Made by a program: the position numbers and the translations under genes | Shown here: in pieces, positions 26,910-57,758 of the stretch | Layout: every line of letters begins with the position of its first letter | Numbering within the stretch: the stretch's first letter is position 1 | From: a virus | Taxonomy: Duplodnaviria > Caudoviricetes | Virus record (IMG/VR): IMGVR_UViG_3300025154_001556 | Direction: 5' to 3' (one strand) | DNA length: 64,000 bases | Notes under the pieces: generated by a model | Told to the model about the DNA's origin: nothing | The model's database searches: none | What the model saw: the letters and a program-made list of their open reading frames with translations, nothing else

Positions 26910-29900
26910 TTAGCCTATATTCCTATTAGCATACACTAGTGTCATTAAACGTTTTAATTGCCCATCAATAGATGTTAGTTCAAACTTTAATTTACTAATG
27001 TCGGTCCTTTGCCTATTTATATAAGAGTCAATTAATTTTGAATTATTATTCAAAATATCTTTTTTAACTTCCGCAATTCGTACATTTATCTCAGCCTGTA
27101 CATCCTTTCCAAAAGATTCCTGTAAATTAGTTAACTTAGAATCTATTATGTGTATTTGTTCATCAGTTTGCTCTTTAACAAAAGCTATACTTTCTAATGC
27201 GGTATCTAAAATTGTACTATCAGCACCTACGGATTTAGTATTATTTATGGAGTCCGCCAGGTTCTTAAACATAGTTTCTAGATTAGATGTATCTAGTTTA
27301 ACGTTTGAAGAATCCAAAGATATCTTATCTGGTATACTACTTATTACAGAAGTTAGTTTATCAGTAATACCGTTATCGTCCAATTTAACATCAAATACTT
27401 TATCCTCTACTTTTAAGGGAGCTATATCAGCCAACTTTAACTCTTTGTCCTCTACACGTAATACTCTATCTTCTACCTGTAATTTTTTACTTTCATCCCA
27501 AGTAAGTGTAATACTTTTTTGTTGGGCATTAGTAATTGTATTGGTAGTAAGTTCACTATTAACAAGGCCACCATCAGCAAAGCGTCTTGGCAATACTACC
27601 TCACCTTTCTCTAAATAATGAGGACCAGTAGATCTCGTTACGCCGCCGTCATGCATAATAGGCATGAATCTTCCACCTTCAAGTTGCTTATTACCTTTAA
27701 AAGTGTCGCTTAAAAGATTACTATTTTCATCTAAATTACGTGTCTTTAAATAGTCCTCAATAATAGTTTTAACACGTGCGCTGTCACCTTCACTAATACT
27801 CTTAACGGCCAGAGCTCTAAATTCATTTGTTGTTAATAAACCCTCCAACTCTTTTGGCATGTTTTGTTTGGCTGCCAAATTACCGGCATAATTCCAAAAT
27901 GTGCCCTCATCAGTTTCACTAATTTTAGCACCGCCCATAGGCAACATTGCATCTAATTTACCAGTATCCCTAAGTCCTATAACCCTTCCTATATTGGAGG
28001 TTAAGGCTATACGATCCTCTACATCAGCAAGTACGTGTCTTAACGCCCGGAGCGCCGGACTGTTTTGTAATGTATTACCAGATGTAACTAATTTATCAAA
28101 TTTATTTAATGACTGTCTAGCTTGCCATACATATTCTTCCGGAAGATAGCCAGCATTAGGCTTACCTGTCTCTTTATCAATACCATGGGATAAGGCATTA
28201 CGCATGATAGTTGGATCTTCAAGATAATTTCTAAGTTGCTCTACTTCTGGATAAGCTGGGCCTGCTGCTGCGGTCATACTTGACATCTTAGCACCTTTAT
28301 ATAAGTAGTTAGGTGTAAAAGTCATAGTATTTGTTTGTTTTTCGGTGCCCACATCATTTGCTGCTAAACGTCTAACGTTTTCCTTTATATCTCGCGTGGC
28401 AGTAAAATACTCTTCGGCGGCGCCCACTCTTCCTGCATTGTAAGATTCACCAAAAGTAGTTTTTCTTTCTGCCATTTGAGTCATAAGTTGTTGTTCTTCA
28501 GAAGACACTCTTGAAGTAGTAGCTCCTAATAAGTCTTCAGTTTTAACTCCTTTTCTTAATTGTTCCTCTTCATTTAAAACTGAGGCCCTTGCTTTAGCCA
28601 GAGTTAATACCTCCTTCTCTGTAAACATGGGTATACTACCGCCGTCAGCCAGGTTATTTTCCTTCATGATGGCTTCTAGTTGTTTTCTGCGCTTGGTAAG
28701 GATGTCCTGTGCGCCGGACGCAGAAAACACGTTGCCGCCGTCAGCCAGGTTATTTTCCTTCATGATGGCTTCTAGTTGTTTTCTGCGCTTGGTAAGGATG
28801 TCCTGTGCGCCGGACGCAGAAAACACGTTGCCGCCGTCAGCCAGGCCTGGCATAATACCTTTTTTATTTATATAGTCCAGGGTATCATAACCAAGTTTCT
28901 GGGCCGCATGGGCGCGTATTACGTATTCTCCTGGACTAAGCATAGCCGGAACTTTATCCTCTCTTGGACCACCAGGACCTGTAATGTAACCCCCGCGAGC
29001 CTTAACAAGAGGTGTAGCAGCATCGACAGCAGTAGTCTCTGTCGGTTTATCCTTTAAAGCTTTATTTAACTCTTGTAGTTGAGTTGTATTATTATAAAGT
29101 GCCTCTATTTGTGCTTTAAAATAAGCGTCATCCGCTAAGTGTAGGTTCTCCAAATCAGGCAAATTCAGCGAGGGTTTTTCAAATAAATCACCACGTGATG
29201 CAGCATCCTTCTCTGCCTTAGTTAGTAGGTCATTGGTTTCTTTTAAAGACATGAGGTAGTCTGCTTTTGGGGCAGCAAAATTGTACCCTTCTACCCCAGC
29301 ACCAACTGCTAATGGGGCCGCAGTCAAAAGTGTTGCAGCCTGGGGCCCCATAAAAAATTCAGCAAGCAGGGCTATATCAGGTCCCATAGCAGCCAGAGCA
29401 GATGCACCTAAACTTAAAGTACCTTTTGAAACAAAATCCTTAGTTGGGGTATCTGTAAAAACAGATGGTTTATTACGCGCATTTTGACGTTCTTGTTCAC
29501 TAATAAACATGGCCTGTCCAGCTGCAAATTGGTTTATCCTTGCTTTTATTATTGGATCGTTAACATCAAAACCTTGTTGCTCAGCCATTTTTGTACCAAT
29601 AAATGTAGCTTTTTCTTTAACAGCTTTTTCTTGCGCTACACCAGGAGGAACTATATTAATATCCTTAATGGCAGCACCTACTGCCCTGCTGGTTAAATTA
29701 ACAATAGCATTGCCTAATGCATTGTTATATTCTACAAACTTTGGTATAACTCTACCTAATTCTATAACCAAATTCCCCGTAGGCACAGAAAGAGCATCCA
29801 AGGCTTTGTTAGCGGCCACTAAACCAGCCATAGAATTTTGTTCCACTTCACTTACATATTTTTGTACAGGCGATTGAAATTTTGCTGTTTCTAGGGTTGG

Positions 29901-32900
29901 AAGTAGTTTATCTGTTTCTCCAGGAGTTTTAAATAGCTGTCTTAACTCCGAGGAGGGAACGCCTAGTTTTTCAGCTAATGTTTCTAAGATCTTTTGTATG
30001 TTAATCAATTCTTTAACCACAGGATCAGAGTTCATTAGAGTTTTTTCAAGGTCATGTTGTATTCTTGCAAAGCCCTCTTTTACTTCTGGTGTTATTGCCA
30101 CCGCTCTGGTGCTTTCAGCCATACCACCAAATTGAGACATGTATCTCTGGTATTCTATGGTTCCTTCCCCATACTGGGCTTTGGCTTTTTCTTTTACTGC
30201 TCCAATAGTAGTTTCTGATTTTATGAAGGTCGCTTGAGAATTTTTAAGTTCCTCTAATTGTTTTAAAGACCCAGCATAGTAAGCTTTTGTGCCGGCATCT
30301 TCATTACCAAATGATATTCTTTCAATTAAAGTATCTTCCATGGAATTTATGGCATTAACCATAGTGTCTAAACCTTGAAATTGCTTAACCAAATCTTGTT
30401 CTTCACGTACCCTAGCCTTTTCCTGTGGCATATGGGTTATTTGGTCAATAACTTTCTGAAGATCATTACCTTTAAGATTGCCAGAAAATAGTTGTGTATA
30501 TAAATCAGCTGTTCTTATTTCAAATTCATCAGCAAATTTGCTTAAAGATATACCACCACCCATTAAAGCATCTATTTGCTGTGTAGGTGTGACCATTCTT
30601 TTAGCAAAAGGACCGCTAGCACCAACCAGGGAATCCATGGCCAATTTAAGATTTCTAGTACCTTCTAATCCGGCACTAAAACCCTGTACGCTTAAAGATT
30701 TAAAACTTTCATTAAATACGCGTAGACTTTTACCTGTATCAAACACGGTTTGCGTTATACTGCCTAAGGATTCCATACTATTTTTAAGGGTTTCGAAGTC
30801 TTCTGTTAAATCAGACGTCTCATCACTTAATTTTAATATTTCATCTTTATATGCCTTAGTTTGATTGGTCTCTTTATCGCCGGCATCTAACAGCTTTAAT
30901 CTGATATCTGTTATTAATTGCTCTCTATCTGCTATTTTTTTACTTACATTTTCTGTTAGAGCTTGTGCCGATTTTAGTTGATCTATCGTGTTTTTTGTAG
31001 TTCCTTGTGATGATTTAAAAAAGTATTCTTGATCACTTAATTCGGCGTCTTTACGTTTAAATTGCAAATCACCTCTAAAACCAGATAATTCAGGATTCAT
31101 GGCAGCAGTCATTGACGTTTTAGATTGAGAAATTGATCTAGTTATACTAGAAAAATCTTCAACTAATTCGGTATTAGCCCGTTCAGATCTAGCCTTCTTA
31201 AAGGTCCCTTCAATTATTACAGGCTCTAAATCTATTTTTATATTCTTTATTTTAGAAACTTGTCCTTTTATAGCATGTTCGTACTCGTCTATTAAAATAT
31301 CCACATTTTTAAACCGCTTCTTTTCTTTACTACTTAACCCTACTGTTTTATCCAAAGCGTCTAATTCTTGTTTTTCAATATAGAGTTCAGTAAGCTTAGA
31401 CTGCATAAGATCTGTTTTACTTTGGGCCTTTTCTAATGCTTTAAAAGAAGTTTCTGCCTTTTGGTATTTATTTATTGTAAATACTTTTTCAAGTTTAACA
31501 CCTTTTCTAGGATCTTGTATAGAAGCCAAACTATTTATAAAGGTGGCCACTGATTCAAAATTAAGGTCCTTAGCAAAAAAATCTAGATCAGTGAAAAGTC
31601 TTCCTAGATTAGTAAAAAAGTTTTTACCTACCTCTGAAAGATTTTTAGCTTTTGATACCAGCTCCTTATCTTTAAATAGCAGATATTGTTCTGTTGTCAT
31701 ATCCCGTGTACTTCTAACACCTAAGTCAACTTGGGGTGGATTATACTTACCTCCTAATAAACCACCAGGTTGAGGTACAGCGAAATTACTGGACCAAAAA
31801 GATGGCCTAACAAAACTTTTTACACCGTAAGTCATGGACTCTTCCACTAATTTACTAAACCTATTTTTAGCATTTGCTGTTATTTCTACATTGGATATAG
31901 CGGCAGCCATATCATTTAATTCCTTTTCTAATTCTTCAGCCATTTCAAGTTTAAGCATCTGTTCTTGCATATCAGCGGCCTGTTTGTTTATGACTTGCGC
32001 CTGCTGTTTATAGACTTCTTTCATATCTTTTATGGCTTGTTCCACTTTTTTCTTTTCAGCATCAACATCCAATACTTTGGATTTTACTTCTGTTCCTTGA
32101 AGTATTTTATCGGTTGTAGCATTTTTAATAGCCTGCTCATTAAGGGTATTAAATATTTTTTGTGCTGATGATGTGTTTTTCTGTATCAAATCCGCTATAA
32201 GGGTGGACTCAGCGGCAGATTTTTTAGAAGCTGTTGCTATCTCAGTAAGTTTTTCATTACTTTCGGCTAGATAACCTGCCATAGTAGCCGCAGCTGCTGT
32301 GGCTAGTACTTGTGCAGGTCTATTAATGTCTGGGTCTGTTATTGGGCCAGCAACAGCACCGCCTGTGGCGAAAGTTGGTAATTTGCCATATTCATTAATG
32401 TAGTCTAGCTTACTTTGACCCAAATGTTTGGCAGAGTCGGCCTTGATTATATATTCACCGTTACTCACCCTAGCTAATATATCGTCTGATGTACCAGTAC
32501 CTTCGCCCGCTATTGGACCGCCAGTAGCCATTTTAAAATTAACAGCATCTAATAATTTTTTTAAATCATCTGGTAAATTTAAAGTGGCCTCTTCACCCTT
32601 GCCTACTTTAATTTTAGACAAAGTAGTTACAGCTTTATGTACCTCAGGATATTTTTCCTTTAATACATCCAAAGCCATTTCCTCGGACCCTTTAAGTACA
32701 TCAGATAACTCAGGGTAATCTTTAAGTATATCATTAACTTTACGTAATAAATCGGCTTTGTTTTTAAGTTCGTCTTTGCTTTCTATCAAACTGTTTTTAA
32801 CGGCACCACCAGTAGCAAAACCTGTTAAATCTTCTGGATTATGTGTTTTACTGAATTTATCCAATCTGGCATAACCAGCGCGTCTAGCAGTTGCAGCATC

Positions 32901-35900
32901 TAGTACATACTCGTCTTTACTTAATTTTGCATTAATACTATCAGAAGTAGGAGTACCTTCACCAAACACTCTGCCGCCATCAGCGAAACCGTACTGTGTT
33001 TTATTTTTTTCATAGTCTTCATAAAAGTTTTTTTCAGCCCGTTTAAGTTTTATGGCCTGTGATAAAGAGGGTGCCTCACCAGTGTTTGCTACACCAGTGG
33101 CTACATCTTTTAACACTTTACCATAATTTTTAGTGGCCTCTGAAAGATCTGTTCCCAATAGTTTACTAAAAACTAATAAAGCAGCATAAGTGGCTACGGT
33201 ACCTGCACCTAGTTTCTTTATAGTGTCGTCCGCAAAGCCAAGACTTTTAGCAAATTCCATAATTGCTGTTTTTGACGCAGTCATAGTAGTAACAGCGCCA
33301 TATAAAGTAGCTTTTGCTGCGGTATCTTCTCTGGATGTAGTAAGTGTTTTTTCTTGTGTTTTTAGGTCTTCTATTAACCCTTTATTTTGATTAACAGCGG
33401 GCTTGGCTTCTTCTGCCGCGAGTTGTGCCCTTAATACTTGAAGCTGTTCATCTAATTTCTTAACTGTTGCGTTTTCGCCAGCTTTTTGAAAAGCGGAAGC
33501 AACACTGGCTGCGGCAGTGGCTTTCATTACAGTTTTATCATCAATAAACTGTGTTTGTTGATTTGCTGTTTGTAATTTATTTATGGCTTCCACATCTGCA
33601 GTGAACGTTGGTTTGTTTGGAACAGTTTTTAAACCAAACCACTTACTTTCTTCTGGTACGACATCCTTCATTTGTGTTACAAAATCACGGAAATCTAGAC
33701 CAGAAAACATTCGTTGAGAAGCTTCTGTTGCTGTGTAGTTTTTAGCACCAAAAACATTCTGGCTACCTATTTCTTTAAGTGTTCTATCTACCCCTAATTG
33801 AGATGTTAAATTTTTAGTCATAACATCTAGAACTTTATTGGCTTCTATCACCATATCGGAATTGCCGGTGGCTGACGCTCTATCGCGCATTTCAGCTACA
33901 CGCTCTAGTCCAGTTAGTAAATCTTGTGGTGAACTAGCAGACATATATTTTTCTAACTGTTTATCAAGTTCCCCTGGACTACCTAAAGCCATTAAAATGT
34001 CTTCAAGCTTAGTAACAGTATCCGCAGTATTAGTAGCTACCCTAGAGGTTTCTATTTTTAATTCAGCGTACCCTGTGTCACCTGTTCTAGCAACAGTTTC
34101 AGTAAAGTTTTGCATTTCGTCCTTAGTTAGCACAGAACCAAAGCCTTTTGATACAGCAGCTATGCTATCAAGTGCCACAAGAGCTTTATCGGAGGAGTAC
34201 ATGCCCTCTGACGCACCTTGTTTTTGTATATCTAATTCTTTTAGTTGAGCGGCTAAGTTTCTGTAATCCTCTGAGCCTATTAAAGTACGTTGTTGAACAG
34301 TCAGGTCTTTATACTTAGGCCCGCCCGTATCAAAAGTGTCTAATCCCTCAGATATACCTTTTAAATAACCTGTGGTGCCTTTAAATACTTCTTGACGGCT
34401 ACGTTCAACAGCTATGTTTTCTTCAATTGCTCTTTTGCCAGATTCAAATGTTTTAGTTAAATCGGCCAATACAGCTCTATATTGCATTACCACTTGATTA
34501 TTTTTTAATATAGTAGTTAGGTTTTCTAACTCTTTATATAAGTCATTAGCTATGGTAACACTGCCTTCATCCAAACCTTCTACTTTTAATTTATCTAAGT
34601 CCTCCATGTAACTTCTAAATTTAATCATAGGTTTAGCGTAATACTCTTCAAAATCTTTTTTCCATGATTTTTGGAATGGAGATTCACCAAAACCTTTGCC
34701 TGTAGAAGCGGTAGGAGTAAACCCTTTACCAGATTGTAGCAGAGTGGTTGTTGCTATGTCACTAAAAAAGCGCTCCCCTAAATCAAATTCCTTTTTGAAA
34801 TCTTTTGCAGATATGGCCCTAATACCCGCGCCGGCGCCGGCTACAAATTCATTAAGTATCTCTATTTTGTCTGTGATCTCATCTTGTATATGATTGGCAG
34901 GAAAGATGTTTTCAACTAATTGCTGCATGTCTTTATCAAAAGCACGCTCTTCCACTTTTAGTGTTTTTGTATTAAAGTATTGTGCAACCCACTCAAATAC
35001 ACCATCCGAGGTTTCTTTGAGTTTAACTATTGCTTGTTTGCCCGCCATATTATACTTTGCAGCCACGTCATCCATAAATAGTACTATATCGTTATTAAGC
35101 ACTTTACCTTGGCGTTCAAAAAGACCTGCGGACTCTAATTTACCCTTAGTTAATTCTTTTGTAAAATCTAATGATTTAGCAGAGGGCAGGGCACGCTGCA
35201 TAACAGTTTGCCCTAAAACATCCTGCCAATTAATTTTACCTTTAAGGCCGGCTATATTTAGTCTGGGTTCCATGTTAAGTATAACATCATACCCTTCTTT
35301 TAATCTGGGGTCAGCAAATATTTTAGCAATCTCATTTGGATCTAATCCCTTAGTATTAATGTTGCCTAATACATTACTAAATTCCTTATAAGTAGCCGCG
35401 TAATCATTTCTAAGCGCCTTTAATGTCTCTTGATATTTTTTAATATCTTTATCCACAGCAGAAGACATAGGCGATTTTGCTTTTATTGATAGCAAATTGT
35501 TTAACTGTGCGGTTACTTCAGCAATAGCTTTGGCGGGGGCCACTTTAATACCCTTAGCAAGCATTTCTCCTATAATAGGCACCTCACTCGCTATATCTTT
35601 AATCATTTTTTTAGTGTTTTCAGACCCACCTGTTTTGGTTAAATCCTCTATAAATTTGGAAGCCACGTCTACTTCCGATTCCGCCAGTTGTTTAGTTCTG
35701 GATTTATCCAGTACTTTAAAATACTCGTCAAAATTAGTGCTGGCTTTAAGCACCGCATTGCCTACTTTATCATAACCTAACACCAGGTTACTATTAGATT
35801 CTGCTAATTGATTTGCTAAACTTATTACATCTTCTTGTGCTCTACCTAATGTAATTATAGGAGCTTCATAAGTGTTTAAAGATTTTCTACGTTCTTTGGT

Positions 35901-38900
35901 GGCGGGATCATTTAATTTATTTAAATCCTCTATTTTGCTTTGTAAAACATCATAGGAAGCCGCCATATTTTTAATATTAGTAAGATTATCTTCTTGAATA
36001 CTACGCATACTATACATAGCATTTGCGTAATCTTGTGCAGATTGAGTCATCCTACCATATTGATCCCCTAGTACTTTTATTGCCGGTACTAATGCTGCTA
36101 TTGTGGTTAGTAATGGGGCAACCGCGGCTATAAAGGAAGTATCGTCCGTAGCTAAATTTTCAGTTAACTTTTTGCCTATATCACCGAGTGAATCACCAAA
36201 ACCTTTTACAGCCATACCTCCTAAATAGGAACCCATACCAGCTACTTCGGCGCCCATGGCCAAACCACCAGAAACTAATTTCTTTAGTGCTTGATGTATA
36301 CCCAGCTCTTTAACTGTTTTTTCTATGTCTTCTTTGGTCATACTATTACGTTTTCTAATAGTTTCAATAGTCTCCCCTATACCAGCGGTACTACTAAGTT
36401 TAGTCCCTACTGTTTTTCCGGCAGCCCCGAATGAGGCTATTCCTTTACCTGTGGTAGAAACACTATCAGCAACAAAACTATTAAATACTTTACCTACTTC
36501 TTGTAGTTTAAAGGACAACCTGCCAAAAGAGGAATGAAAATCTGATAATTTAGTCCCTCTGGTTACGTCAGTCTTTCCGCCACTAGCATCCGTAGTAGTA
36601 AATTTACCTAATGTTTTAAGACCGGCAGTGGCTAATTTACCGCCGCCTAAACCAAATAATTCATATTTAGTTTTAGCTAACTCTTTAGTAAATTGTTCTC
36701 CGGCCCCAGATATACCTAGAAAGTCCTTACCTCCAGCAAGCATGTCACCTAAGGATTCGGCTAGTTGCTGTCCCTTAGTCATATAGGTCAGTAAGGCCAC
36801 AAAAGCAGCGCCGGCCGCTTTGATAGGATCAGGTATAGCAGACAGTGTTTCTAAAAATGTTTTAACTCCACTTAAACCTATTTTAAATGCCGGCAAAGCT
36901 ACTTTACCGATAGACATCTGTAGTTCTACTAAAGCAACTTTGGTTTGTTCGAGCTGTTTTCTATAAGTACCCATTAATTCAGCATTACGTCTTTCTGCGG
37001 AGCCTTTGGAATTCATACTCTCTTTGGTGGCACGTAAAGCTTGATCCCAGTTATCCATTAAAGCTATGAGAGAGTTATATTGTCTGGTACCACCAAGTGC
37101 TTGGGAGGTAGCCAATTTTTGGGCGTTACTAAGGTCTTTCCATTTTTTGCTTAGATCATCTAAAACACTAAAACCAGATCTTAACTGTCCAGTAGATTCC
37201 ATGACAGGAATACCTAATTTACCCAGCTGCTCTGGCCCTTTTTCGGCAGAAAGTCTACGTAAAATAAATCTAAGAGAAGTACCTACTTCTTTACCTGATT
37301 GTCTTGTAGTTGAACCGATAGCGGCAACAATACCATTTAATTGATCAAAAGTAACACCAGCAATTTTGGCTGCCGAGGCGGACTTTTGAATAGCATTGGC
37401 TAAGTCACCAGCAGTAATAGCGCTCTTGGCTTCAACCTCACTCCAAGCATCTAAAAAGCGCATAGCACTATTACCTTCTTCTTGGTAAATTTTCATGGCT
37501 GATGTTAAAGCTTCAGTAGCTTCTGATGCTTTTAATGTAGTAACATTAGCAGCTAAGGTAGATACCTTAGTTCTATCTATTATTTCTGCTTGTGTTAAAC
37601 CTTGCTGTGCAAAAACATTCATAGATTGTAATACATCTGTTATACCAACACCATATTGTTTGGCGAAGGTAACCGCGGCCGCTGATAAACCATTTATATC
37701 AGAAGACAGAGGATTTAACATCATTTTAAGTGTGGCTAAACTATACTCTATTTCAGCTAAGGTACTAATAGCTTGTTTGAGTTGCGCAAAACCTCCGTAC
37801 ACTACGGTAGAAGCAGCACCCCATTTAACAGCACGCCCTATTGCACCTCTAAATCCGCTATTAGATCCTTGCATAGCGGAGGCTAAATCTCTTTCTTTTA
37901 TTGTTATGTCACTTAGTGATTTACCATACTTAGCAAAGTCCACCACAACATTACGAACAACCTGCCCAGTCTGATCCAGAACTTTGATAGGATAAGATCT
38001 AACCTCACCTACACGTGCACCACCAGATTCTTGAGGCTTCTCAAAATACTCTTTTACTTTTTCTACATTACTTGTGTGCATAGCCAGTTGCTCTTTCGGC
38101 GCTAACCATTTTGGAACTGGCACTGTGCCTGCCTCACCCCAGTCTTTATTGGCAGACTGGTTAATCATGGTGTATGAGTTCTCTACGGATTTTAAATACT
38201 TTATGACAGTCTCTAAATTCTTCTTTTGAGCTGCTCCAAAATCGTCCGTTAGATTATACTTCATGTAACGTTCAAGAGAAGCGCGGAGCCTACTTAATTT
38301 TTCAGCCAAAAGATCAAAATCCCAAGCATGCATAACATCAGAGCCCATCCTAGTTAGCATCTCGGCATTTTGCATCATGTCTATCATTTCTCTTTTAACA
38401 TTGGAACCAGTAATTGTAGATACAGCTGTACGTGCTTTTTCAACAGCAGGGGTCATCACACTGTCTTTTTGTAAATCACTTACTATATTTTCAAACATTG
38501 ATTGTAGTTGTTTATCATCACCTAATGGTGTTGTAGCCTTAGTAGCCAACTCACCTGGTGTTTGATAAACATTTAGTCTACGTGCCATTTCCGGCATTAC
38601 AAATTTTTTATCTTCTGTGTAAATGTCTGTTCTAGAACCAGCTACCCTACTAACAAACTTTCGCATTCTTGATATAGCGGATTGTGCCTTACCATAACTT
38701 GCGGTTTCCGCCTCAAAATCTTTTGAGGAGCTAGCCGCTTCGTAGGCCCTTTTTGCCTCCTTGGCTTGAGATAAGTAGTAATCTCCTTCCGCCATTCTAT
38801 ACAATTTCCAAGCTTTATTTAATTGCGCTCCTGCTCTACGTTCACCTTCAGGTCCACCTTGATCAGTGGCTAGCTGTTTAAATTTATCTGTTGCTTTTCT

Positions 38901-41900
38901 AAATCTATCCATATCTGGGCCAGTTTTACCTGTGCCTCTAATTATGTCGGATAAATCTTTACTTACTTTTTCGAGACTATTAAGCTCTTCTTCATAGTTG
39001 ATGTTACGAACTTGCCGTTGGAATTCTTTGGCGGCTGTATGGAATGTGGTGAAGTTCTCTAAATCGGCCCATACATCCTTACCAGCGGCTATTTTAGGGC
39101 TATATAATTTGTCTATATCACTAATTGAATCGGTTTCGTCAAGTTTAAAACCCTTAATTTTCTCTTCACTCTCTTTAGGTGTCATCGGTCTGTAAGAAGC
39201 AGCCCTTTGTCTACCGCCGCCAGCAGTTTTAACAGATTCAAAATGTTTTGAAGATTCATCTAACATTCTCTTTAAATCAGAAGCACTTATATTTAAAGGA
39301 CTAGCCTTCTTTGCGGCCTCCGTTTGTTCCTCTAAACTACCTGTGGTTCTAAATTTACCAGCAAACCTTCTAGCTTTAGCTACGGCATCCACATCTTTAG
39401 CTAATAAGGCTGGGTCTTGTTTAAATTTCACAACTTCAGGGGTATCTTCACCCTTACCCGTGCTACTATAATACTTAGCCTCGCCTTTAGTTGCACCAAT
39501 GGCTGTCATATAAACATTTAACTGTGATGCCACATCCAGTAATTTATATGCGGCCGCTAGACTGGGTTTGTCCCCTTTCTCAATGAGTTTGGCGTAAACT
39601 TCTGGGAAATCAGATGTACCGGAAGTTTGTATGGCTTCTCCAATAGCTTTTTTAACCCCCTCACCTACTGTCTTTATATCCATAGGATATTTTTCACCAG
39701 TAGTTTCATCTTTCATTACAACATCTATATGCCCGGTTATAGGGCCAGACTTTGTGGTTAAAGCCACAAATTGTTCTATGGCAGCTGTGGGGTCCATAGA
39801 TATTATATCTTTTTGTATTTTAGCATGTATGGCTTGACCAACAAGAGCAGAGGCTTCTAAGAAGTCATTAGGAATGTTGTCACTTTCTCCACGCATTGCT
39901 GACACTATGGCAGCTATCTGACGACTATTTAATTCTTTTTCAGAGAAGTCTTCTTTTTTAAACCCACTCTTATAGGAACCGCCGCCGGCTAAAGCACTGG
40001 CTCTATATATTGTTGCATATGTTGCACCGCTAAGCTCATTGTGGCCACCTGTTATTTGGGCAGACCATTTTTTAAGCTGTTCTACATCGATAGCAGGCTC
40101 AGTAGTTGTCTGAGTTTTAGCTTGTGGGGTGTCTCCTACAAATAAACCTATACCAGCAGCAATGCTTTGTAGATGAACATTTAAAGCACCGCCAGTAAAA
40201 GTAAATGGTCCCCCTGGAACACCAGCACCCGGTGTTGTTATACCAGGGGTAGCCGGGGGCGGGGGCCCTCCTGCAGACCCGTAAATACCGGCTTCCATTA
40301 TAGGAGAAGATACTTTAGCCGCCTCTATACCTGCGGTGGAACGATATGTTGTTCCCCTAACTTTACCTGAGGAGACAGGGGGTAACATAGTAGCCACATC
40401 CATACCAGAGGCACTAGAAGTTTTAAATACTTTTAAAGCTCTATCTAGTGAATATAAGGCCTTCATTTTTTCTGAAAATACGTCTACATATGCATCTACT
40501 TTGGTTTGTAGTTCTTCGGGAGTTAAGCCTTGATCTTTAAATTTAGTTTCAGCCATCTTACTAAGTTCGCTTTTACCTAGTAGCTCTATTTCTTGTAGCA
40601 CTGACGGCTCTACTACTGGCAGCCCCGCTAGTGTAGTATAATAGTCTACAACATCACGCATACGCATTAAATCTTTAGCTGAGGATCTATCTTTAAATAC
40701 TTGCGTATGTATTGGAGACATTGTGGCTAAGTCACCCGTGGTTAATTCAGTAAGCTTACCAATACTATCTTGTATTGATTTAATATCCAGAGGTTCGTAA
40801 TTAGCAATAGCTGCAGTTACAGCTTGCACGTCTTTCTGTGAATTTTTTAATCTATCGGCAGAAGTCTTTACCAATTCACCGTAAGCACCAGAACCAGATA
40901 CCTCATATAACTGATTAAGCTCATCTTCCAAATTAGATGCGGTAGCTACTGCCTTTGCCATACTAGACGAGTATCTAGCTTCTTCTTTTTTACCATAAGC
41001 ACCTGGCTGTAATTTAGATATACCCACATCTAAATCTAACGCGCCTTTACCATGCTTACTGATATAAGCACCCATTTGGCTTTCTGTACTAGCGCCGGCG
41101 GTTCTAAATTTATATAATGGTGCTTCTTTACTAGTTATTAGGCTTGAAGCTACCGCAGATGGACTTGATTCTTTTAATCTTCTGGCATATTCTTCTTTGG
41201 CTGCCGCTTTAAGGGTGTCAGGAGACATTCCTTGGCCCTTATTAGCGGCTATTTGTTTCTGTAATGTATCCAGAGCCGAATTTATAATAGACTGCTCTAA
41301 ACGCGTTAGAAAGCCTCTAAAACCCATCTTGTCTACCATCTCAGCAGTAAATTTATCTATATCAGATAAGTCAGCAGTTACACCATAAGCGGTTGCCATA
41401 CTTTTAACATCATCCGCCATCCCTTTGGACAACATGCTATGTATTCTATCTGTTATAGCTTGAGCATCTGCCTTAACAAAATCTTTAAGATCTTCGTAGT
41501 CTTTATTATTTAAAATGTTTTTATATACTTTTTCTCCGCCACCAGGTTCCATTATATCTCTGGTTATATCCGAGGACACAGAAGCGGCGCCGGCATGTTT
41601 AACGTCCATACCTTTCTGTAAGCTAAATCGGGTTAGCTCATTCATTCTAGCTTGTTCGTCCCTAGAGAATTTCTGATCGCCCTTAGCACCTATTAAGCTG
41701 GATTCCCCAGATACATCTTTATTGTAAGAAAGACTTAAGCGTGTAAAAGCCTCTGTTTCAGGGCCTGTATGAATTTTAAATAACTGCGCGGCCACAGCTG
41801 ACTTAGTTCTCTCATTTGCCAAAGAGGCACCTGTTTGAAATTTAAATGATTTTTTAAATTTATCATCTAAGGTCTCTATTACTGCCGCAACTTTATCTGC

Positions 41901-44900
41901 GTTATTTTTTAATTCGTCCGCATTACTAAGATCTTTTATGTTAGTCACAGCCGCTTCTAACTTGTCAGCATCTGTTTTATCGAGTAAGTTGCTTATTTGT
42001 TCAAGTACTTTATTTAAATCCTTGGAATCTCCGGCTAAAGCCTGCATCTGTTCGGATAAAGATAAGAAACCCATATCTTCCGTAGCAAAAGGTTTCTGCA
42101 TAAAACTGAAACCTTTTTCTGTTGGAAATTTTTTAGCAAAAGACTCTCCCATCTCTGCTAAGGTATATTCCGATGCTGGGGGCTGCACCGCGCCATAAGT
42201 AAACTGATCTCTAAATACTGATGCTGTATCAGATAAATCCTGAGTTAAGGTATCATAATGTTTTTTAATATCCCCTCTGGCTTTAACATTAATAGCAGAG
42301 TGAATTTCTATGGCGTCACCGTCAAAATCTAGTTTTTGTTGATGTGCTATATACTTAGGTAATAAATTGGATATAGCGGCATTAAGCTTATCAATTAAAT
42401 CTGTTAATTTTTCTAGCTTCTCTGGTGAGGCTGCGGCGCCTTTACTTAACTCACCGGCACGTTTGGTGGATAGATCTTCCCGCTGTTTAGTCATTCTTTG
42501 AATAACGCCAGATAAAGCATCCATCGGTAGATTGGGCATACCAGGAACAGCCAATACATTACTAGCCATACCTCCTTTACCTTCATCTAGTAGTCTAGCT
42601 TTATAGGGCTGTATTGAAGATGTACCTGTAAAAGGATAACGAAGGCTCTCTATATAAGGAGCTAGCTCTTCTTCTATGTATTTTTTTATAGTGGCTTTTT
42701 CTTCCGCTGTGCTCCCTTTACCCTGCAGATCTTGGGTGTAACGCAGCATGTCTAATAGAGTACCTTCTACCTTAGTAGCTGGAGCAGCCTCGCCTTCTTT
42801 TGTAAATTTCTTGGTGAAGGACACAGGTATCTTTCTGGCTATTTCCGCAGGGACACCGATCTCATGCTGACCCAATACTGGAAGACCTAACTCACTTGTA
42901 CGTTTTAGACGCTTGCTATGTTTTTCTTTTATAGATTGTGTTTGTTCCTGCAGTGATTTTAAAGATTTAATACTTTTTTCTGATATCCCCATCTCTTGTT
43001 GCATTTCTGGTGATAGGCCCTCTAGATCACCTATGATGGCGGACATCTGTGTATCAAATGTTTCTAGATCTTTTGTCTTATCAACAGTAGCAGAAACAGC
43101 CTTAGCCATGACAGCTGGTATTTTTCTAGTAAATAAAGTTTCTGCAACAGAACCACTTTTACCTAAGGTAGTTTCAGCCAAAGTCTCTAAATAATTTATT
43201 TTAGCTTTTTGGACAGCAGCAAGTTTATTATTCATCTCTTGTTCTAACATGCCCTTACCGCCAGAAAAATCTTTACTAATGGTATTTAGTTGCTCAAGTA
43301 AGTTACCTTTTGGATCTACTTTAAATGGTACTTTACCTTCGCTCAATTGTCCTGAAACTGTGGCGCCGGCATGTCTAAGAGCTTTAAGTATGGCGTTGTA
43401 TCTTTTTTCGGCATAGTTAGCTTGGGATTGAACAACACCTTCCATAGAACTAGCGTAGGACTTATCCATAGATGCGGACAAATCATCGTTTATATTCTTT
43501 TTAAATGTTATCCACATTTGTTCTAATTCTTTTACATATTTAGGATCATAGGTGGATAGCCTGCCCCCTTTCACTCTTATGTCACTAGTGGTGGACAACA
43601 CAGAAGATTTAAGCATTCCCGCAGCAGCTTCTTTCATAACTGCTTCCGCTGTTTTACGTGAATCTACATTTTTAGCCATATAGTACTGTTCAGTGTTGGT
43701 TACAAAATCTTGGTAGTCCTTAGCGGAGTTTATTAAGTTTTGTAATACACGTGTAGGCTCTTCGGGACCAAATTCCCCGGCTACTAAGGGCTCAGGATAA
43801 ACACCGCGGCCAGCAGGGGACGGGACATAGAAGTCCTCAAACGCTGTGGGCTTTTGACCAAGTTTGGCTTTAGAAGCATCAGATGATGGTAATTGTAGCA
43901 TAAAGGGCTTGTTGAATTTCTCAACATCCATAACAGTTCCCAACATACTACGCTTACCTTTATCCAGTGTTCCTGTAGAATAGTCAAAAGATTTTAATTC
44001 ATCTACCGATACTTTTTCTAACTTATTTCTTAAAGCTCCTAAAACCTCAGAGTCTTTATTAGTATTGGCTATTAGGGTCTTTATGTATTCCCAATGTTTT
44101 TTATCGGTATCACTTAGCTGTTCTACAAGTTCTGCTTGACTACCAGCACCCTGAATTGGTGTCTGGTTTATTTCCTTCATCAATTCCGAATCTTTACCAA
44201 AAACATTTAGATAGGCTGTATAAGCTGGGACATTAAGCTTTGCACCTTTTATACGTTTACGCACATCAGTGGTAGACCATGCCTCGGTAGCGGTAGGCTC
44301 CTCCACTACCTGTAAGAATTTTTGACCGACAAGACTCTTACGTTTTTCTCCAAACTCGTCTATAATTTCTGTATAAAAATTAGACATCTCCTCAAGAGCG
44401 GCGCCACGTTTTGCCATTACAGCTGCTTGATCAGACTTCTTACCACGTTGCATAAAGATTTTTGTTAAAGCTTCCTCTGCCTTTCCTGGGTCGGTACCCT
44501 TAAAACCCAAAGCGGAACTGTATGTAGATAAGGATTCTTTACCACTACCGAGTAATTTTTTATACATATCGGGGGCGAACTTATCCCGTAACGTTGTGTA
44601 GGCCTCATCTTTTTCTGATGCTTTTTGGACATTAGCAACGTTATTAAGTATGGTCTCTAATACCTCTGTCTGTAAACCACGTTTACCAGCACCTAAGGAA
44701 CTTATTCTAACATCAATTGGTTTTAGTTCATACAAACCACCTTCTTTAATCATACTACTATATGTTTGTTTCAGGTTATTTATACCATCAACACCATCGG
44801 TTATGGCTATACCAATTGAACTAAATAGCTCCTTGGCTTTATTATAGATATCTTGTTGGACAGAAGCCTCTTCTGGAATAGTTAAACCTGATGTAGCATC

Positions 44901-47900
44901 TTTAAAATACTCTATCATAAACTTATTACCAGAGTTTATGAGTTGTGATTTTAGCCCTTCTACTTCTGATTGAGAAGCACCTGCTGCTGTAAGCCCTTCT
45001 ATTTGACTATCTAACAATTCAGCTGCTAACTGCCCCATACTTTTAGGCATTTTGGCAGTACCTAAACCAGCGTTTACCTGCTCTTCACTAGTAAGTACTT
45101 TTATGTTTTTATCACCCCAAGTTTTAAGAATGTCTGACATTTTAGATGTGTCAGTAGAGGTCATAGACACACCCTTCGATCCAAAACGTGTGGTAAACTT
45201 TCTACCAAAGTGATTCATAAAAACTTCGGCAACTTTCGCTGCTTGCACTTCTACATTCTCAGAACGTACTGTTGCCATGGCTTTTTGTACTTCTGTAATA
45301 AAAGCTTTGTCTGCGCGTCCTTTATAGGTATTACTAACTCCTAACATATCCTGAAACTGGCTATATACTTTATTAATAGCCTCAGGAGAATCTACATCTT
45401 TTAACACCCCAGGCTTAACATCTGATACCGCCTCTGTGCCTTTACCCGAACTTAACTCTTTTCCCAGCATCCTACCGCCGGCTGCGGGTAAAACTAATGT
45501 TTTTGTTAAAGAGGTAACAGCATCAGCAAGTTTACCAGATACAAGTATTTGATCTTCAAACGTGCCGGCAGTGTGGCGTAATTCAGCAGTGACGTTAAAA
45601 CCATAACCTTTCTCACCGTAACGGCCACCTTCGATTAAAGATTTTTCACGCTCTGTTCTTAATGTTGGTGTTGTAGTACCAATCCCTTTTACACGGGCTA
45701 CATCAAATTTATCTGTAAGGCCGTTTATTTCATCAATAGAAGAGGACATAGCGTTAGTAACACCCGCTATATTACGTCCTAATTGTTGAAATTCACCAAA
45801 AGGGGCCATGCTTGTTAAGTCATCAACAAACATCTTTATATTAGTTCCACCAAGTGCTTTTAAGTAAGATAGCCCTTCTTCGTAATCTTTATTATCCTCG
45901 TCGGCTCCTCTTACTTTATTAGATTTAAGGTAAGCTATGGAACTAGCCTGAGACTCGGGTATACCTAAGGAGGATAGTTTTCTTCCTTGTGTAGGCAGTT
46001 CTTGTAACCGTTTAACAATAGGACCAGATTCCGGAGATTCTGCCGCCAATTTAGCGAGCATGTCCCTTTCAGCGTACATTTCCTTAAAACGTAGGTTTAA
46101 ATCTTTAATATAATTTTTATGTTCTTCAGGTTTTAATTCATAATCCCTTTCAGTAGGATATAAACCTGGTGTACCTCTGGAAAGAAGATTAACCACATTA
46201 GATTGCTGTAAACCACGACGTGGTTTACCGGGCTCTATTAGCGGCATCAGTTGTTCTACTTGTTTTGTAGCTGATTCAAAGCCCCTGGCACCACTCTGGT
46301 ATGCTGGTTTTTCTACCAACTTTTTTAGCGGGTCTGCTAAGACCTTACCATAGATATCATATATGTTTTTAAATTCTACTTTATCTAAGGCCTTTGCAAA
46401 ATCATATGCTGACACTTGTGCGGTGTTCATCATATTAACAAAAGACATGATCTGCGTTTTAAGATCTTTGTTGGGGTCAAGGGTAAACTGATCTATCTGA
46501 TTAGTAATGTTGGTTAATGCAGGTAATATGTCTAAATCAGGATCTATACGTTTTTTCTGCACCATTTTGGAAACAGTGGCTGCTTTGTACCCTTCTTTGA
46601 TGCCGGAGAATTCTTTAATAACACGTGCATATTCAGTTGATGCAGGTGCACCCTGTTTAAAAGTGCTTATATCAGCTAGCAATTTAGTTACTAAATCTGA
46701 TACAGCATTTTGTTCTAAGCGTGTTTGGGGATTAACACCAATAGTTTGTATTTTAGAAGCATAGTCTTCTTCGCGGCTTAATGTGCCGGCCTGTAGTGCC
46801 TTACTGTACAGCTTTTCCAGCCCTGTTTCAAACATTGCAAATTTAGATAAAGCACGTTCTGAGCCATGAGCGGTTTCCAAAATAGGGGTACCGGAAGGAG
46901 TCATCCTAGCCGCAGGTAGTGCCACATTACGGATATAAGGGGCTGGATGTTCTTTTCTTGTAGTGTCCACATCAGATAAACTTCTGTTGACCTCAGCTAC
47001 CGCGTATGTTTGTCTAGTAAGTTGTGTTAGTGGCCCTAATTGACTACCAACAGCTTTTTTTACACCTTCAACTAAATTAACAGTGCCTTTGGATGTTTCA
47101 TAAGCCGTTTTAAGATCAAGAAGTGCTTTTTTAATTTCAGGATCTGCCACGGTTGTCCAACCAGCTATATTTTCTTTCGACGCGGACTTCATCCACGTAG
47201 CTACTTTACTAGCCAGTAACTCCGCATTTTCATCAGCACTACCGCCATGAGTTACATTTGCCATTAACTTATCTAACTGCAGCTCTTTAAAGGCAGAAAC
47301 TATTTGATTTGGATCACCCGTAGCAGTTCTTTTGTTTTTTGTAAGTTCTCTTTGCATAGATTTTACATCCGCTATCTGCATGGTCCACATTTTAGCGTTT
47401 GTTTGATTTAAGCTATTACTTACATTTGTAAAATATTTGCTACTTTCAGGAGCTCCGGGCATTTCTAAAGGCTTCCAATCAGATTTACCTAATTGCTCAG
47501 TAACCGTGTTAGTAATATCTTTTAGTAATGCATTTAATGAGCTGGAAAGCTGTCTCTCCATAGCATGGACGTCGAGGGAAGCTCTGGAAGCGGAGATACC
47601 TTTAAGAATACCTTGCACAGAATCAGCCATCTGATCTTTTGCGGTAGCTACTTTATCGAACTCCTGTTTTATATTATCAGCACTATAACCACCTACTGCT
47701 GGTTTTATTACTTTAGATCCATAAACAGCTTTTTGTTCTGATGTACTACCGATCGCTTTAATTCTGCTAATATTTGCTGCCGGTGTGGTAGGAGCTTTGG
47801 CGCCGACATTAGTAGCAACTTTTGTAGTTGGTGCAGCCAACACAGTGTGTTTAGTACTATCAGCTAATTTAGTTAAAGACGCAGCTACTTCGGCTACATT

Positions 47901-49766
47901 ACGCTCTAAGGCTTCAAACTTGCTACTTAAATCTTCTGTTTTTATAGCCCTAACCTTAGTTACTAAATTATCAGCAATTTGAGATCCGGCCTTGGCTTGA
48001 CTTACCATTGAGGCCTCAGTTGTATTTTGTAGCTCATCAATCAAAGATCGCAGGGCGGCAATCTCACTGGATGCTTTTTTTACTTCTGGGCTATTAAAAG
48101 AACTCGTCCTTAAGGTCTTATTTATAGATTCAGTTTTAACACTTAAAGATTCTGTAAGAACCCCTTTTAATGATTCTAAATTCTTTTTTAAAGTAGATAT
48201 AGCTTGTTTATAATTATTAAAATAGCCACTTAAAGCTTTGGCAGCCTCGTCGGCGTTTAAATCAAGCAGCACGTCTAATTTAACGTTATCTGGAAATTTA
48301 GAAGTTATTAAACGTTCAATGTTTTCTAACTTAGGGGCTATTACTATCTCAGCAGCACCTGATGAAATTTCCTTAATTACAGAATTAAGTTCTTTTTTAA
48401 CATCCGCAGTGTCTATTGTAACATCTAGGGTGGCGGCTTTATCTATAATATCAAGTAGTGTAGTTATTTCCTTAAGTTTTTTATTAAGTGTTGTAGCTAC
48501 ACCTATCTTAATATCTCTATCTTTTACTAGAGTATCTATGTCTTTTTCAGCTAATTTAGTATCGGCAGAAACTTGGACAGTTACTTTACTGTTAGAAGCA
48601 TTTATTATAGAATCAATTGTTTTTCTAAATGCTTTATCATCAACATCTACTGATAGTACCAACTTTTCAGAAAGTTTATTGAGTCTAGTAATTATTTCTT
48701 TATCATTAAGGGCTACATCTATTTGTTGCTTAGACTTTTTAGTAGCTGTTTCTAGATATTTTATGTTGCTGGTAGATCCACCAGATTTTAAAAGTTTAGG
48801 TAAGTCTTCTAGTGCTTTACTTACAGCACGTAACTCAGAAAGTGTACTAACTAAAACTTTATCTGTTTGTTTAGAAGGCTCTTTACTAATTATACTTGTT
48901 TTCTTTGCAGCGGATAAAGTAACCAAACCTTTTTCTACTGATTTAGATATGGCTGAGGCCAACGCATACGTATCGATACCGCTAGCAGCAGAAGAGCGTT
49001 GTTTTGTAGTTTCTTCTTTTACGGCTTTTTTTATTTGATCTAGTTCTTTTATAATGTCAGAACTAGCAGCTGGTGAAGCCTCTACTGCTTTGGATAATTT
49101 TGTTAGTCCGGAAGTAAGTTGTTTAATCTCTGAATATAATTTTGATAGTCCAGCACTTACTTCTTTTACATTTGATGTATCTTTGGTTGTTGTAACAGTA
49201 GTTTTGTAGGAATTATCTACGCTCTTGGCTAACCCTTCTATGGCTGTTTGTAACTTAGTTAATTTACCAAAGTCAGTTGATGCAGGATCTTTTTTAATGG
49301 CAGTAAGGATAGAGGTATTGAGATCTTTTATACTTTTGTCTATGGCAGTTTTATCTGATTTACCTGATATGGCGCCTAATACTTTTGTTAGCGCACCTAA
49401 TTCTTTTGTTATAATTGATTCTAATGCCTTAGTATCTAATGTAGTTGTAGGTTTACCCGAAGACGTGGTTCCGCCTGCAGTGATACTTCGTTGAAATTCT
49501 TTGGCTATTGTTTTGGAAATATTATCTGCAAGGATCTTTGCTTGCTGGGCAGTATCTTTTGTAGCAGTGCTTGACTGAGCTTTACCATACGCATCATTTA
49601 GCCCATCCTTTATTGCTTTTTTAACAGAAGACGCTAATCTATCGGTTAACCCATTAAATGCTTTTGCTAATGTGCTATCTAAGGTAGAAGCTATATTGTC
49701 GGCCTTATTGCTTCCTGAACTTGATCCACTTATTATATGAGATACTGTGATGTCGTGCTTAGCCAA
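26910..49766 (-). CDS. Giant tape measure polyprotein (7618 aa) containing two-barrel RNA polymerase, PD-(D/E)XK nuclease and TP901-type TMP core
   Basis: Uninterrupted 22.9-kb ORF with TTG start and GGAGG RBS; canonical position after tail tube and chaperone genes; domain motifs listed as separate features. Confidence 0.92.
   Translation of the reverse strand: [7618 protein letters not shown]
28639..28845. repeat. Perfect in-frame 96-bp tandem duplication (about 2.2 copies) in the TMP gene
   Basis: ccgccgtcagccagg recurs at 28639, 28735 and 28831; unit encodes [32 protein letters not shown]; 50 of 96 bases are G/C. Confidence 0.95.
36900..37870 (-). other. TP901-family (PhageMin_Tail-like) tape-measure core, about aa 3970-4290
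   Basis: [23 protein letters not shown]...[11 protein letters not shown]...[23 protein letters not shown]...[15 protein letters not shown]...[18 protein letters not shown]; hydrophobic segments follow. Confidence 0.9.
39450..40010 (-). other. PD-(D/E)XK nuclease domain (RecB/PDDEXK_1-like) within the TMP, about aa 3250-3440
   Basis: YRASAL, GQAIH3314, E3331, GHID3348, D3363-I-K3365-T, Q3415-LNV-Y3419, in the expected order. Confidence 0.8.
41550..45800 (-). other. Two-barrel (double-psi) RNA polymerase region within the TMP, beta-like then beta'-like, about aa 1320-2740
   Basis: FE1404D1405; GRK1523FTTRFGSK1531GV; [23 protein letters not shown]; R2376YP; D2480FDGD2484 at 42315-42329; Q2717KGM2720DVKH2724. 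Confidence 0.88.
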
Positions 49767-49773
49767 AGCGGTG

Positions 49774-49778
49774 CCTCC
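49774..49778 (-). promoter_or_regulatory. Shine-Dalgarno site of the TMP gene
   Basis: TAGGAGG-CACCGCT-TTG, 7-nt spacing. Confidence 0.75.
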
Positions 49779-49845
49779 TAGATGATGTTGCTTTAATCAA
49801 TTAAACATTCTTTTATTCTTAATAATAGAATGGTTACCTTATTAC

Positions 49846-57014: not shown

Positions 57015-57758
57015 TTAATCCTCCAAATAACTACATTTATAATTCTTATGTTGGTTTCTGTTACCCTTGGCGCATGACACCATATGGGCCGGGTTAAGTT
57101 TATGCTCCCTACAAAAAGACGCTAAACAGTCTATAAGTATAATTTCGCCTGTAGGTGTCTCTATACTGTATTTCTTGGCATTTGGATTTAAAGCCCCAAT
57201 AAATCTACCTTTTAATGTAGTAGCTATTTTACTTTTAGTTTCATTATGTCTTGGTTTACCATAATTAGGGTTGTTAGCCCCAACATACATCCCAGAGTTC
57301 TTCCTTGTTTCTGACATCTTTCTTTTGGCGGACTCTGTATGTTTTCTGCCTTTTTTAGACGCACTAATCTTTTGTCTGGCTTCTTCTGATAGAATGTTAC
57401 CGTAAGCGGGATGATCGGAGCCTTTTAATCCGTACATTGCATTTAACTCGCCTACAGCCCCTATACTATTAGTTCCACCTTCAGTCATATTGTACCCTTT
57501 GTTAAAACTATTATACTCATTTATATAGTATATTTCCTTTTCATTCAGCGCTTCTTTATTATAAGCACTATCTAACTTAGACCAAATAAAATTGGCCGGG
57601 CCGTGTTTTAATAAAGCTTGATACAGTTTATACGATTTACGTTTCATGGCATTTAAATGTTGTGTTTTACGTCTTGCCAAAGTATGCGTAGTTTGACCTA
57701 TATATACTTTACCATTAATTACATTAGTTACTTTATATATTATACCGTAAATATTCAT
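57015..57758 (-). CDS. Free-standing GIY-YIG homing endonuclease with NUMOD3-like repeats
   Basis: GIIYKVTNVINGKVYIGQT...R...H...E...GYN; repeats LSEEARQKISAS, HTESAKRKMSET, HNETKSKIATT. Confidence 0.93.
   Translation of the reverse strand: MNIYGIIYKVTNVINGKVYIGQTTHTLARRKTQHLNAMKRKSYKLYQALLKHGPANFIWSKLDSAYNKEALNEKEIYYINEYNSFNKGYNMTEGGTNSIGAVGELNAMYGLKGSDHPAYGNILSEEARQKISASKKGRKHTESAKRKMSETRKNSGMYVGANNPNYGKPRHNETKSKIATTLKGRFIGALNPNAKKYSIETPTGEIILIDCLASFCREHKLNPAHMVSCAKGNRNQHKNYKCSYLED

Follow-up and report, generated by a model that had tools for sequence, protein, structure and literature searches.

A cysteine-free tape measure protein of 7,618 residues with a predicted RNA polymerase and nuclease ahead of its ruler

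Introduction

How long a tail is built by a phage whose tape measure protein (TMP) carries enzymes in front of its ruler? The question is raised by a stretch of 64,000 nucleotides from the Caudoviricetes virus record IMGVR_UViG_3300025154_001556 of IMG/VR (the window), whose reverse strand encodes, between positions 26910 and 49766, a single protein of 7,618 residues. Its recognisable TMP sequence begins only about halfway along the chain, and a predicted RNA polymerase (RNAP) and a predicted nuclease lie ahead of it. We put at roughly 0.55 the probability that this TMP doubles as a delivery vehicle for a virion RNAP and nuclease, and that the uncleaved chain, extended in the tail tube, sets a tail of ~1.1-1.2 µm; the state of the chain in the tube and the length of the tail are argued by analogy with the phages TP901-1 and P23-45. 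The source is an uncultured jumbo phage of ~237 kb from groundwater, with the probable morphology of a siphovirus.

That a TMP can carry an enzyme is known and not new, because it has been published for the Thermus phage P23-45 (Chaban et al., 2024; PMC10770324). The TMP of that phage, gp96, is 5,002 residues long and contains an N-terminal two-barrel RNAP with the motif DFDGD at residue 779; the polymerase is active in vitro, and gp96 was found at full size in virions by Western blot (PMC10770324). It is paired with a second, non-virion RNAP, gp64, which gp96 probably transcribes (PMC10770324). In a limited library we found no paper on a family of giant RNAP-TMP proteins, or on any TMP of more than about 5,000 residues.

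Results

The 7,618-residue frame is real

The gene is a single frame of 7,618 codons with no internal stop, as the earlier note on this window had described it, and the identical protein has been called independently in JGI data (P0002). When all in-frame ATG, GTG and TTG codons were scanned, the AGGAGG with the TTG at the head of the gene proved to be the sole strong pair of Shine-Dalgarno (SD) sequence and start codon in the frame; no strong SD with a start that would give a ruler-only product was found inside it, the scan having addressed strong sites. The earlier note had also raised the worry that the polymerase region and the TMP core were joined by mistake in assembly. The 9.9-kb stretch across the polymerase-to-ruler junction was found in 18 public runs from nine studies of groundwater and soil, and in the Logan contigs of four runs positions 30000-49900 (19.9 kb) are each spanned in one piece, with 0-1 substitutions and 0 indels. 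Beyond this locus, 70 proteins of 4,271-7,998 residues, drawn from JGI, ENA, Logan and NCBI assemblies, are collinear with the giant protein at 25-96% identity and all contain PF10145. In 41 of 45 related IMG/VR loci no stop interrupts the frame between a point ~1,000-1,400 residues ahead of the polymerase and the limit of the fetched DNA.

A chimera is rejected because the run-level contigs match and the homologues keep the same order, the comparative argument being the stronger, and the mis-join worry is thereby refuted: the 7,618-residue frame is real. It is true that the comparison used contigs of runs rather than raw reads, and that the samples may belong to a single campaign. Against this stand the agreement of contigs nearly 20 kb long, the near-length homologues from four sources, and the fact that 22.9 kb without stops at 35-40% GC cannot be chance. 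We therefore regard an artefact, whether a mis-join in assembly or a gene in decay from which no single chain is translated, as hardly credible.

A polymerase and a nuclease precede the tape measure core

The earlier note had read the protein as enzyme cargo in front and a ruler behind: a low-complexity leader, an RNAP and a nuclease, followed by a TMP core starting near residue 3970. This anatomy is borne out, the order being leader, RNAP, linker, nuclease and TMP core (Table 1). The polymerase is marked by two motifs, GRKFTTRFGSKGV of the beta type and the metal-binding DFDGD, both of which are invariant in 64 of 64 homologues (K1523, K1531, D2480, D2482 and D2484), and they place a beta-type barrel before a beta-prime-type barrel. 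An AlphaFold model of residues 1380-2579 (predicted local distance difference test, pLDDT, 79.8; predicted template modelling score, pTM, 0.69) gave 34 Foldseek matches at E<=1e-3, all of them to RNAP chains of the beta/Rpb2 class (best E 2e-5). With VIA-align, residues 1873-2529 were aligned to the N-terminal regions of beta-prime, A190 and Rpb1 (Z 10.3-10.7, root-mean-square deviation 4-5 Å over ~265 residues, 16% identity), where the Z scores are moderate and three helical membrane-protein entries (TTYH2/TTYH3) score equally or higher on a helical part of the model. Conservation of the polymerase among the homologues extends to about residue 2900. The predicted model and the invariant motifs together confirm residues ~1,380-2,900 as a two-barrel RNA polymerase, with RNA synthesis as its predicted activity. 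Searches of PDB sequences with the RNAP part, by phmmer and by profile, gave no match, and neither blastn with 7.9 kb nor tblastn with the RNAP part matched any of 50,697 phage records, so that no cultured phage was found.

Residues ~3229-3509 are predicted to form a well-ordered domain (AlphaFold pLDDT ~90) and match the PHROG profile phrog_1706 (E 3e-7). The best fold match of the model is the Cas4 protein SSO0001 (4ic1; E 6.5e-4, template modelling (TM) score 0.58-0.61), followed by Exo5, MGME1, LHK-Exo and lambda Exo, and the profile of the domain also matches 4ic1 in sequence (E 0.0017). Its invariant residues, H3314, E3331, D3348, D3363-x-K3365 and Q3415..Y3419, are those of RecB-type motifs. 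Since the four cysteines that hold the iron-sulfur cluster of Cas4 are absent, as the giant protein has none, the domain is Cas4-like in fold but better termed a nuclease of the RecB/lambda-Exo class. On the model and the invariant motifs the assignment to the PD-(D/E)xK nucleases is confirmed, activity being predicted. The nuclease is present in 58 of 71 homologues and missing from the other 13. A different exonuclease family, PF00929, is listed for four homologues; it was not located in residues 2100-3800 of one protein inspected (P0062).

Three lines of evidence place the TMP core, which begins at about residues 3,860-4,030, where the earlier note had it. PF10145 scores 97.5 bits against a gathering cut-off of 33.2; eleven PHROG TMP profiles, the best at E 2e-73, span residues ~3856-3959 to ~4815; and tblastn matches residues ~3896-4340 to the TMPs of cultured siphophages of Bacillus, Staphylococcus and Lactococcus (~28% identity over ~430 residues). 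This core is the most conserved stretch among the homologues. The hydrophobic segments of the protein are confined to its C-terminal half, with weaker ones at residues 5519-5537 and 6784-6802 accompanying the strongest (Kyte-Doolittle), and the C-terminal tail carries three copies of the TMP motif GG...LSxGE[YF][VI], at residues 5597, 5749 and 6925. In its homologous core, its hydrophobic segments and the position of its gene downstream of a tube gene, the protein thus resembles the TMPs of TP901-1 and of the other PF10145 siphophages of Bacillus, Staphylococcus and Lactococcus; those proteins, however, have ~900-2,600 residues and neither polymerase nor nuclease, whereas here the core sits in mid-chain.

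The leader (residues 1-700) is rich in Ser, Thr, Ala and Lys and holds 2.4% aromatics, and it varies in sequence as well as in length (214-763 residues) across homologues. The conserved region that follows, residues 700-1380, received no assignment from Pfam, PHROG and PDB searches or from an ESM Atlas feature search; it may represent a lobe-like N-terminal portion of the beta-like polymerase half.

A widespread family in two size classes

A profile search of 1.8 billion cluster representatives returned 143 proteins in four groups: a class of 6,400-8,000 residues, fragments at contig ends, a class of 4,089-5,563 residues, and free-standing proteins of 1,000-1,161 residues. More than 80 giant homologues of 4,100-8,000 residues share the module order. 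The full-length homologues have 6,595-7,998 residues (mean 7,424, coefficient of variation 4.5%), with most of the length variation in the C-terminal tail, which changes fast even between close relatives; one such relative (P0003) has 7,715 residues. The earlier note's remark that the protein would be among the largest of any phage is true, yet it is one of dozens in a family that reaches 7,998. The smaller class comprises 12 proteins (among P0108-P0165; locus L044) without the nuclease, which share the same TMP core (E ~1e-103 to 1e-120 with the local profile) and most of which have DFDGD at residues ~270-1,700. Even in two distant IMG/VR relatives, whose RNAPs are 23-24% identical, PF10145 is found further along the same frame.

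The free-standing proteins are single-chain RNAP homologues with both catalytic motifs, matched by the profile of the embedded RNAP at E 1e-13 to 3e-4. They belong to the general YonO/killer-plasmid kind of two-barrel RNAP (~1,000-1,180 residues), with which the embedded enzyme shares the beta double-lysine motif and DFDGD, and differ from it in standing alone, in a size below half that of the embedded module and in their 9-18 cysteines. A separate RNAP gene (1,088-1,180 residues) accompanies the giant TMP in three of five related phage records of 228-269 kb; the record of the closest relative gave no match. A giant TMP and a free RNAP in one genome mirror the pair of gp96 and gp64.

The variable C-terminal tail carries further modules in two relatives, an SLT lytic transglycosylase in one (P0052, residues ~6566-6675) and a PT-TG pre-toxin domain in the other (P0019, residues ~6340-6405), so both ends of the giant protein accept cargo. 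Two loci show breaks in the frame. In a 55-kb IMG/VR contig (L021) the TMP frame is interrupted only by TAG, at 11633-11635, 12650-12652 and 20225-20227, the third being a frame-shift site, a sign that this phage may recode TAG or read through it. In the other (L013:18839-18923) the frame ends at a TAA within the TMP core and goes on in another frame after an 84-nt overlap, which reflects either a sequencing frameshift or a programmed one.

Cysteine loss follows the tape measure context

Not one of the 7,618 residues of the giant protein is a cysteine, although the 1.35% in the 35 other open reading frames (ORFs) of the window would predict ~103, and the 70 homologues contain 29 in 504,149 residues. 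P23-45 gp96 has none in 5,002 residues, on a Thermus-phage background that is itself low (0.14%). The free-standing RNAP homologues have 9-18 per ~1,000-1,160 residues, and three related phage records provide a control within the same record: the free RNAP has 16-18 cysteines and the fetched stretch of the giant ORF (3,325-5,732 residues) has 0. Because the free paralogues keep their cysteines and the giant ORFs do not, the purge follows the tape measure context and not the enzyme. It extends over domains whose cellular or CRISPR counterparts bind metals through cysteines. The embedded RNAP has also drifted towards a ruler-like composition: helix-favouring residues (A+K+E+Q+L+M) make up 42.6% of it, against 33.8% of five free paralogues from other genomes and 43.5% of the ruler, and the corresponding values for C+H+W are 1.2%, 4.7% and 0.8%. 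The cysteine purge fits cargo that travels unfolded: we infer that, while it is lodged in a narrow tube and travels along it, and perhaps across an oxidising envelope too, the cargo has to be unfolded or in some alternative state, from which it later refolds.

Comparison with known virion polymerases

The giant protein is like gp96 of P23-45 and gp95 of P74-26 (PDB 8H2M and 8H2N) in joining a two-barrel RNAP with DFDGD to a tape measure in one giant cysteine-free polypeptide, and three of the five related phage records, like P23-45, encode a second, free-standing RNAP elsewhere in the genome. The two designs differ in several respects. Whereas the RNAP of gp96 begins at residue 1, here it follows a leader of ~700-1,300 residues, and its core starts after ~1,300. 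The beta and beta-prime halves are collinear in that order, with cellular beta and beta-prime chains as the best fold matches; a PD-(D/E)xK nuclease is added, and no metallopeptidase, which the gp96-type TMP has, was detected with Pfam. The giant protein also has a TP901/PF10145-type TMP core and exceeds gp96 in length by 52%, and its genome of ~237 kb compares with one of 84 kb in P23-45. Aligned by hhalign to gp96 residues 1-1300, a profile of 64 sequences gave a probability of 0.8%, and there was no PDB sequence match to 8H2M or 8H2N. Judged from these sequences, the same TMP-polymerase solution apparently arose independently of P23-45 in an environmental jumbo-phage lineage. By description, the protein is also like gp66 of the crAss-like phage phi14:2 and the virion RNA polymerase (vRNAP) of N4, each a virion polymerase within a very large protein that is delivered with the DNA for the early genes. 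These are podovirus proteins stored in the capsid and not tail rulers, and N4 vRNAP is a T7-like single-subunit enzyme.

How much of the chain measures the tail

Deletion mutants of TP901-1 give 0.145 nm of tail per residue, the N-terminus of the TMP being presumed to lie at the connector/terminator and the C-terminus at the Dit-Tal tip. In P23-45, a tail of ~800 nm and the 5,002 residues of gp96 give 0.16 nm per residue for the whole chain; without its 1,200-residue RNAP, gp96 would need 0.21 nm per residue, which exceeds the helical rise, so that the whole chain is needed. At 0.145-0.16 nm per residue, the 7,618 residues correspond to 1.10-1.22 µm and the C-terminal part alone to 0.53-0.60 µm, and the sums made beforehand at 0.15 nm in the earlier note (7618 x 0.15 nm = 1.14 µm; 3650 x 0.15 nm = 0.55 µm) are right. 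By analogy with these two phages, a tail of about 1.1-1.2 µm, measured by the full chain, is the probable outcome. By the same rule, a very recent in-frame change of length in the C-terminal tail, the tandem duplication at 28639-28845 that adds 32 residues, corresponds to ~5 nm. The tail of P74-26, which is related to P23-45, is 'nearly 1 µm' long. Electron microscopy of Baltic Sea sediment is described, in a passage of PMC11500664 citing Jakubowska-Deredas et al. (2012), as showing many siphoviruses with 'extremely long tails', and these particles could belong to lineages like the giant-TMP phages.

The earlier note had set three fates for the cargo side by side, threading through the tube unfolded, storage in the head or neck, and cleavage, and had picked none. 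The full size of gp96 in virions, the cysteine purge and the lack of a strong internal start now lean towards an uncleaved chain whose cargo travels unfolded. Several points weigh against this reading. Recognisable TMP homology starts only at about residue 3,860, which permits a 0.55-µm tail with the cargo outside the tube, and the cysteine purge, being compatible with every model that sends the cargo through the tube, does not separate 1.1 µm from 0.55 µm. The analogy with gp96 is one of function and not of descent, as no sequence similarity to it is detectable, and the drift in composition was measured against few free paralogues. Siphovirus morphology is itself a probable reading, the close examination of upstream genes having covered two ORFs (a tube protein and an Ig/PKD protein), and the lineage is known here from sequence alone. 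Length compensation among the 61 full-length homologues, which appears in the raw lengths (total variance over the sum of segment variances 0.67, permutation p 0.00075; front against C-tail r -0.37), is gone with phylogenetically independent contrasts on the core tree (r 0.06, p 0.6, ratio 1.03), and there is therefore no comparative support for total length as a selected quantity.

We consider it unlikely, with these points taken into account, that the C-terminal ~3,650-3,760 residues alone occupy the tube and measure a tail of ~0.55 µm, with the N-terminal ~3,900 residues, folded or partly so, lodged above it (tail top, neck, portal channel or capsid) until ejection, when they would unfold and be drawn through. 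The late onset of homology to ordinary TMPs (residues ~3,860-4,030) agrees with such an arrangement, as do the prediction of polymerase and nuclease as well-folded globular domains, the disordered Gly/Pro linker at residues 3131-3224, which could tether them, and the cysteine purge, which suits it equally well; yet at a normal rise per residue the tail of P23-45 takes up all of its TMP chain, and the embedded RNAP has moved towards the ruler in composition. In well-studied siphoviruses, moreover, tails are assembled separately from heads, and several copies of ~430 kDa of cargo would then protrude at the terminator-head junction. Less probable still is a true polyprotein from which a cut made as the particle assembles or later, perhaps within the Gly/Pro linker, would free separate enzymes that are packaged elsewhere in the virion or not at all. 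The tape measure proteins of lambda and T5 are known to be processed at the C-terminus, the disordered linker stands after the polymerase module, and the nuclease slot is modular, being empty in 13 of 71 homologues. Against cleavage, gp96 is full-size in virions; both size classes and 41 of 45 related loci retain the fusion, the only split forms being likely frameshifts or recoded stops; and a purge across polymerase and nuclease would be pointless if they were never in the tube, as the free paralogues keep their cysteines.

Further features and neighbouring genes

The features of the giant gene are collected in Table 1. Upstream of it, a 537-residue ORF matches the tail-tube clusters Phage_tube_2, Phi812 tail tube and YomU_Tube (TM score 0.74-0.88, normalised by hit), which puts a tube gene in its canonical place upstream of the TMP gene, with three small ORFs between the two, where tail chaperones would be expected. 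A 739-residue upstream ORF, examined for a sheath, is an Ig/PKD protein. Among the 23 flanking ORFs scanned, PHROG searches on 10 gave no match, and Pfam searches on 20 gave only GIY-YIG, HNH endonuclease and Ig-like domains. Two endonucleases lie inside the structural gene module, a GIY-YIG/NUMOD3 protein of homing type at 57015-57758 (-) and an HNH protein with 21 cysteines at 19897-20796 (-). Downstream of the TMP, three ORFs of 868, 1,022 and 623 residues at 10813-18379 (-) carry Ig domains of the Big_1/invasin type and are likely to be adhesins of the tail tip or fibres. At the far end of the tail module, an ORF of 1,792 residues at 2837-8215 (-) contains 38 cysteines and has no family match.

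Table 1. Features of the giant tape measure gene and its surroundings, by position in the window (aa, amino-acid residue of the 7,618-residue protein)
Feature	Position	Strand	Basis or remark
Whole giant tape measure polyprotein gene	26910..49766	-	7,618 aa, TTG start, stop codon included
AGGAGG ribosome-binding site, 7 nt upstream of TTG start	49774..49779	-	SD scan
Leader, aa 1-700	47667..49766	-	Composition; low occupancy and conservation across homologues
Conserved region aa 700-1380, no assigned fold	45627..47669	-	Conserved in 51-67 of 68 homologues
Two-barrel RNA polymerase core (predicted), aa 1380-2579; beta-like, then beta-prime-like half	42030..45629	-	AlphaFold, Foldseek, VIA-align
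Beta-type double-lysine motif GRKFTTRFGSKGV, aa 1521-1533	45168..45206	-	K1523, K1531 invariant
Metal-binding DFDGD loop, aa 2480-2484	42315..42329	-	Invariant; R2376-x-P2378 motif upstream
Helical region aa 2580-3130: conserved C-terminal polymerase part, then helical spacers	40377..42029	-	Conservation, predicted model
Gly/Pro-rich linker, aa 3131-3224	40095..40376	-	Predicted disordered, pLDDT ~30
PD-(D/E)xK nuclease (predicted), Cas4/RecB/lambda-Exo class, aa 3229-3509	39240..40082	-	Profile, fold match, invariant motifs
TP901-type tape measure core, aa 3959-4814 (phrog_4211)	35325..37892	-	Pfam, PHROG, tblastn
PF10145 (PhageMin_Tail) domain, aa 4030-4226	37089-37679	-	97.5 bits against cut-off 33.2
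Strongest hydrophobic membrane-type segment, aa 4545-4563	36078..36134	-	Kyte-Doolittle scan
Variable C-terminal tail, aa 5550-7618	26910..33119	-	1,250-2,935 aa in relatives
Perfect 96-nt tandem duplication, 2.2 copies	28639..28845	-	32-aa in-frame repeat at aa 6976, 7008
Tail tube protein gene, 537 aa	52048..53661	-	ESM Atlas structure matches

Discussion

If the uncleaved chain travels as we propose, its working can be sketched from what is known of TP901-1 and P23-45. Copies of the chain would fill the lumen of the tube in an extended, metastable and mostly helical state, running from an N-terminus near the head to a C-terminus at the tip, and the whole chain would for that reason set the length of the tail. 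At infection the chain would leave C-terminus first, and its hydrophobic C-terminal half may build a conduit through the envelope. The N-terminal cargo would exit last, just before the DNA, and refold at the cytoplasmic side, where the polymerase would transcribe the first-entering genes, probably including the gene of the free-standing RNAP. The nuclease would act on DNA, host DNA being one possible target.

This analysis adds four things: a chimera is excluded, the family is described in its size and structure, paralogues from the same genome provide a control for the cysteine purge, and the test for length compensation comes out negative. The design of P23-45 could have passed for a peculiarity of a handful of Thermus phages, but it recurs in a large environmental lineage with two size classes (4.1-5.6 and 6.4-8.0 thousand residues), whose polymerase is nearer to the cellular enzyme in fold and which has an exchangeable nuclease slot. 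The finding raises the question of whether the sequence of folded enzymes is counted as ruler length. If it is, the tails would be 1.1-1.2 µm long, past the present record of nearly 1 µm, and the smaller class (4,089-5,563 residues) offers a natural comparison of tail length with chain length. It also asks whether a multidomain polymerase of 250 kDa can be stored unfolded and refold after ejection, and whether the avoidance of cysteine is a general mark of proteins that travel through tails, for which the free-standing paralogues are a natural control.

We offer, more tentatively, a wider proposal that seems to us possible though open to doubt. The tail lumen of a widespread phage lineage would be a store of unfolded enzymes, in which a cysteine-free chain of ~7,000-8,000 residues would have two roles: to measure out a tail of about 1.1-1.2 µm, more than has been recorded for any virus, and to act as the thread that feeds a cell-type RNAP and a swappable nuclease ahead of the DNA, to refold in the host. 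The near-total loss of cysteine, in contrast to the cysteine-rich free paralogues of the same genomes, might then be a signature by which tail-threaded cargo could be recognised in any phage.

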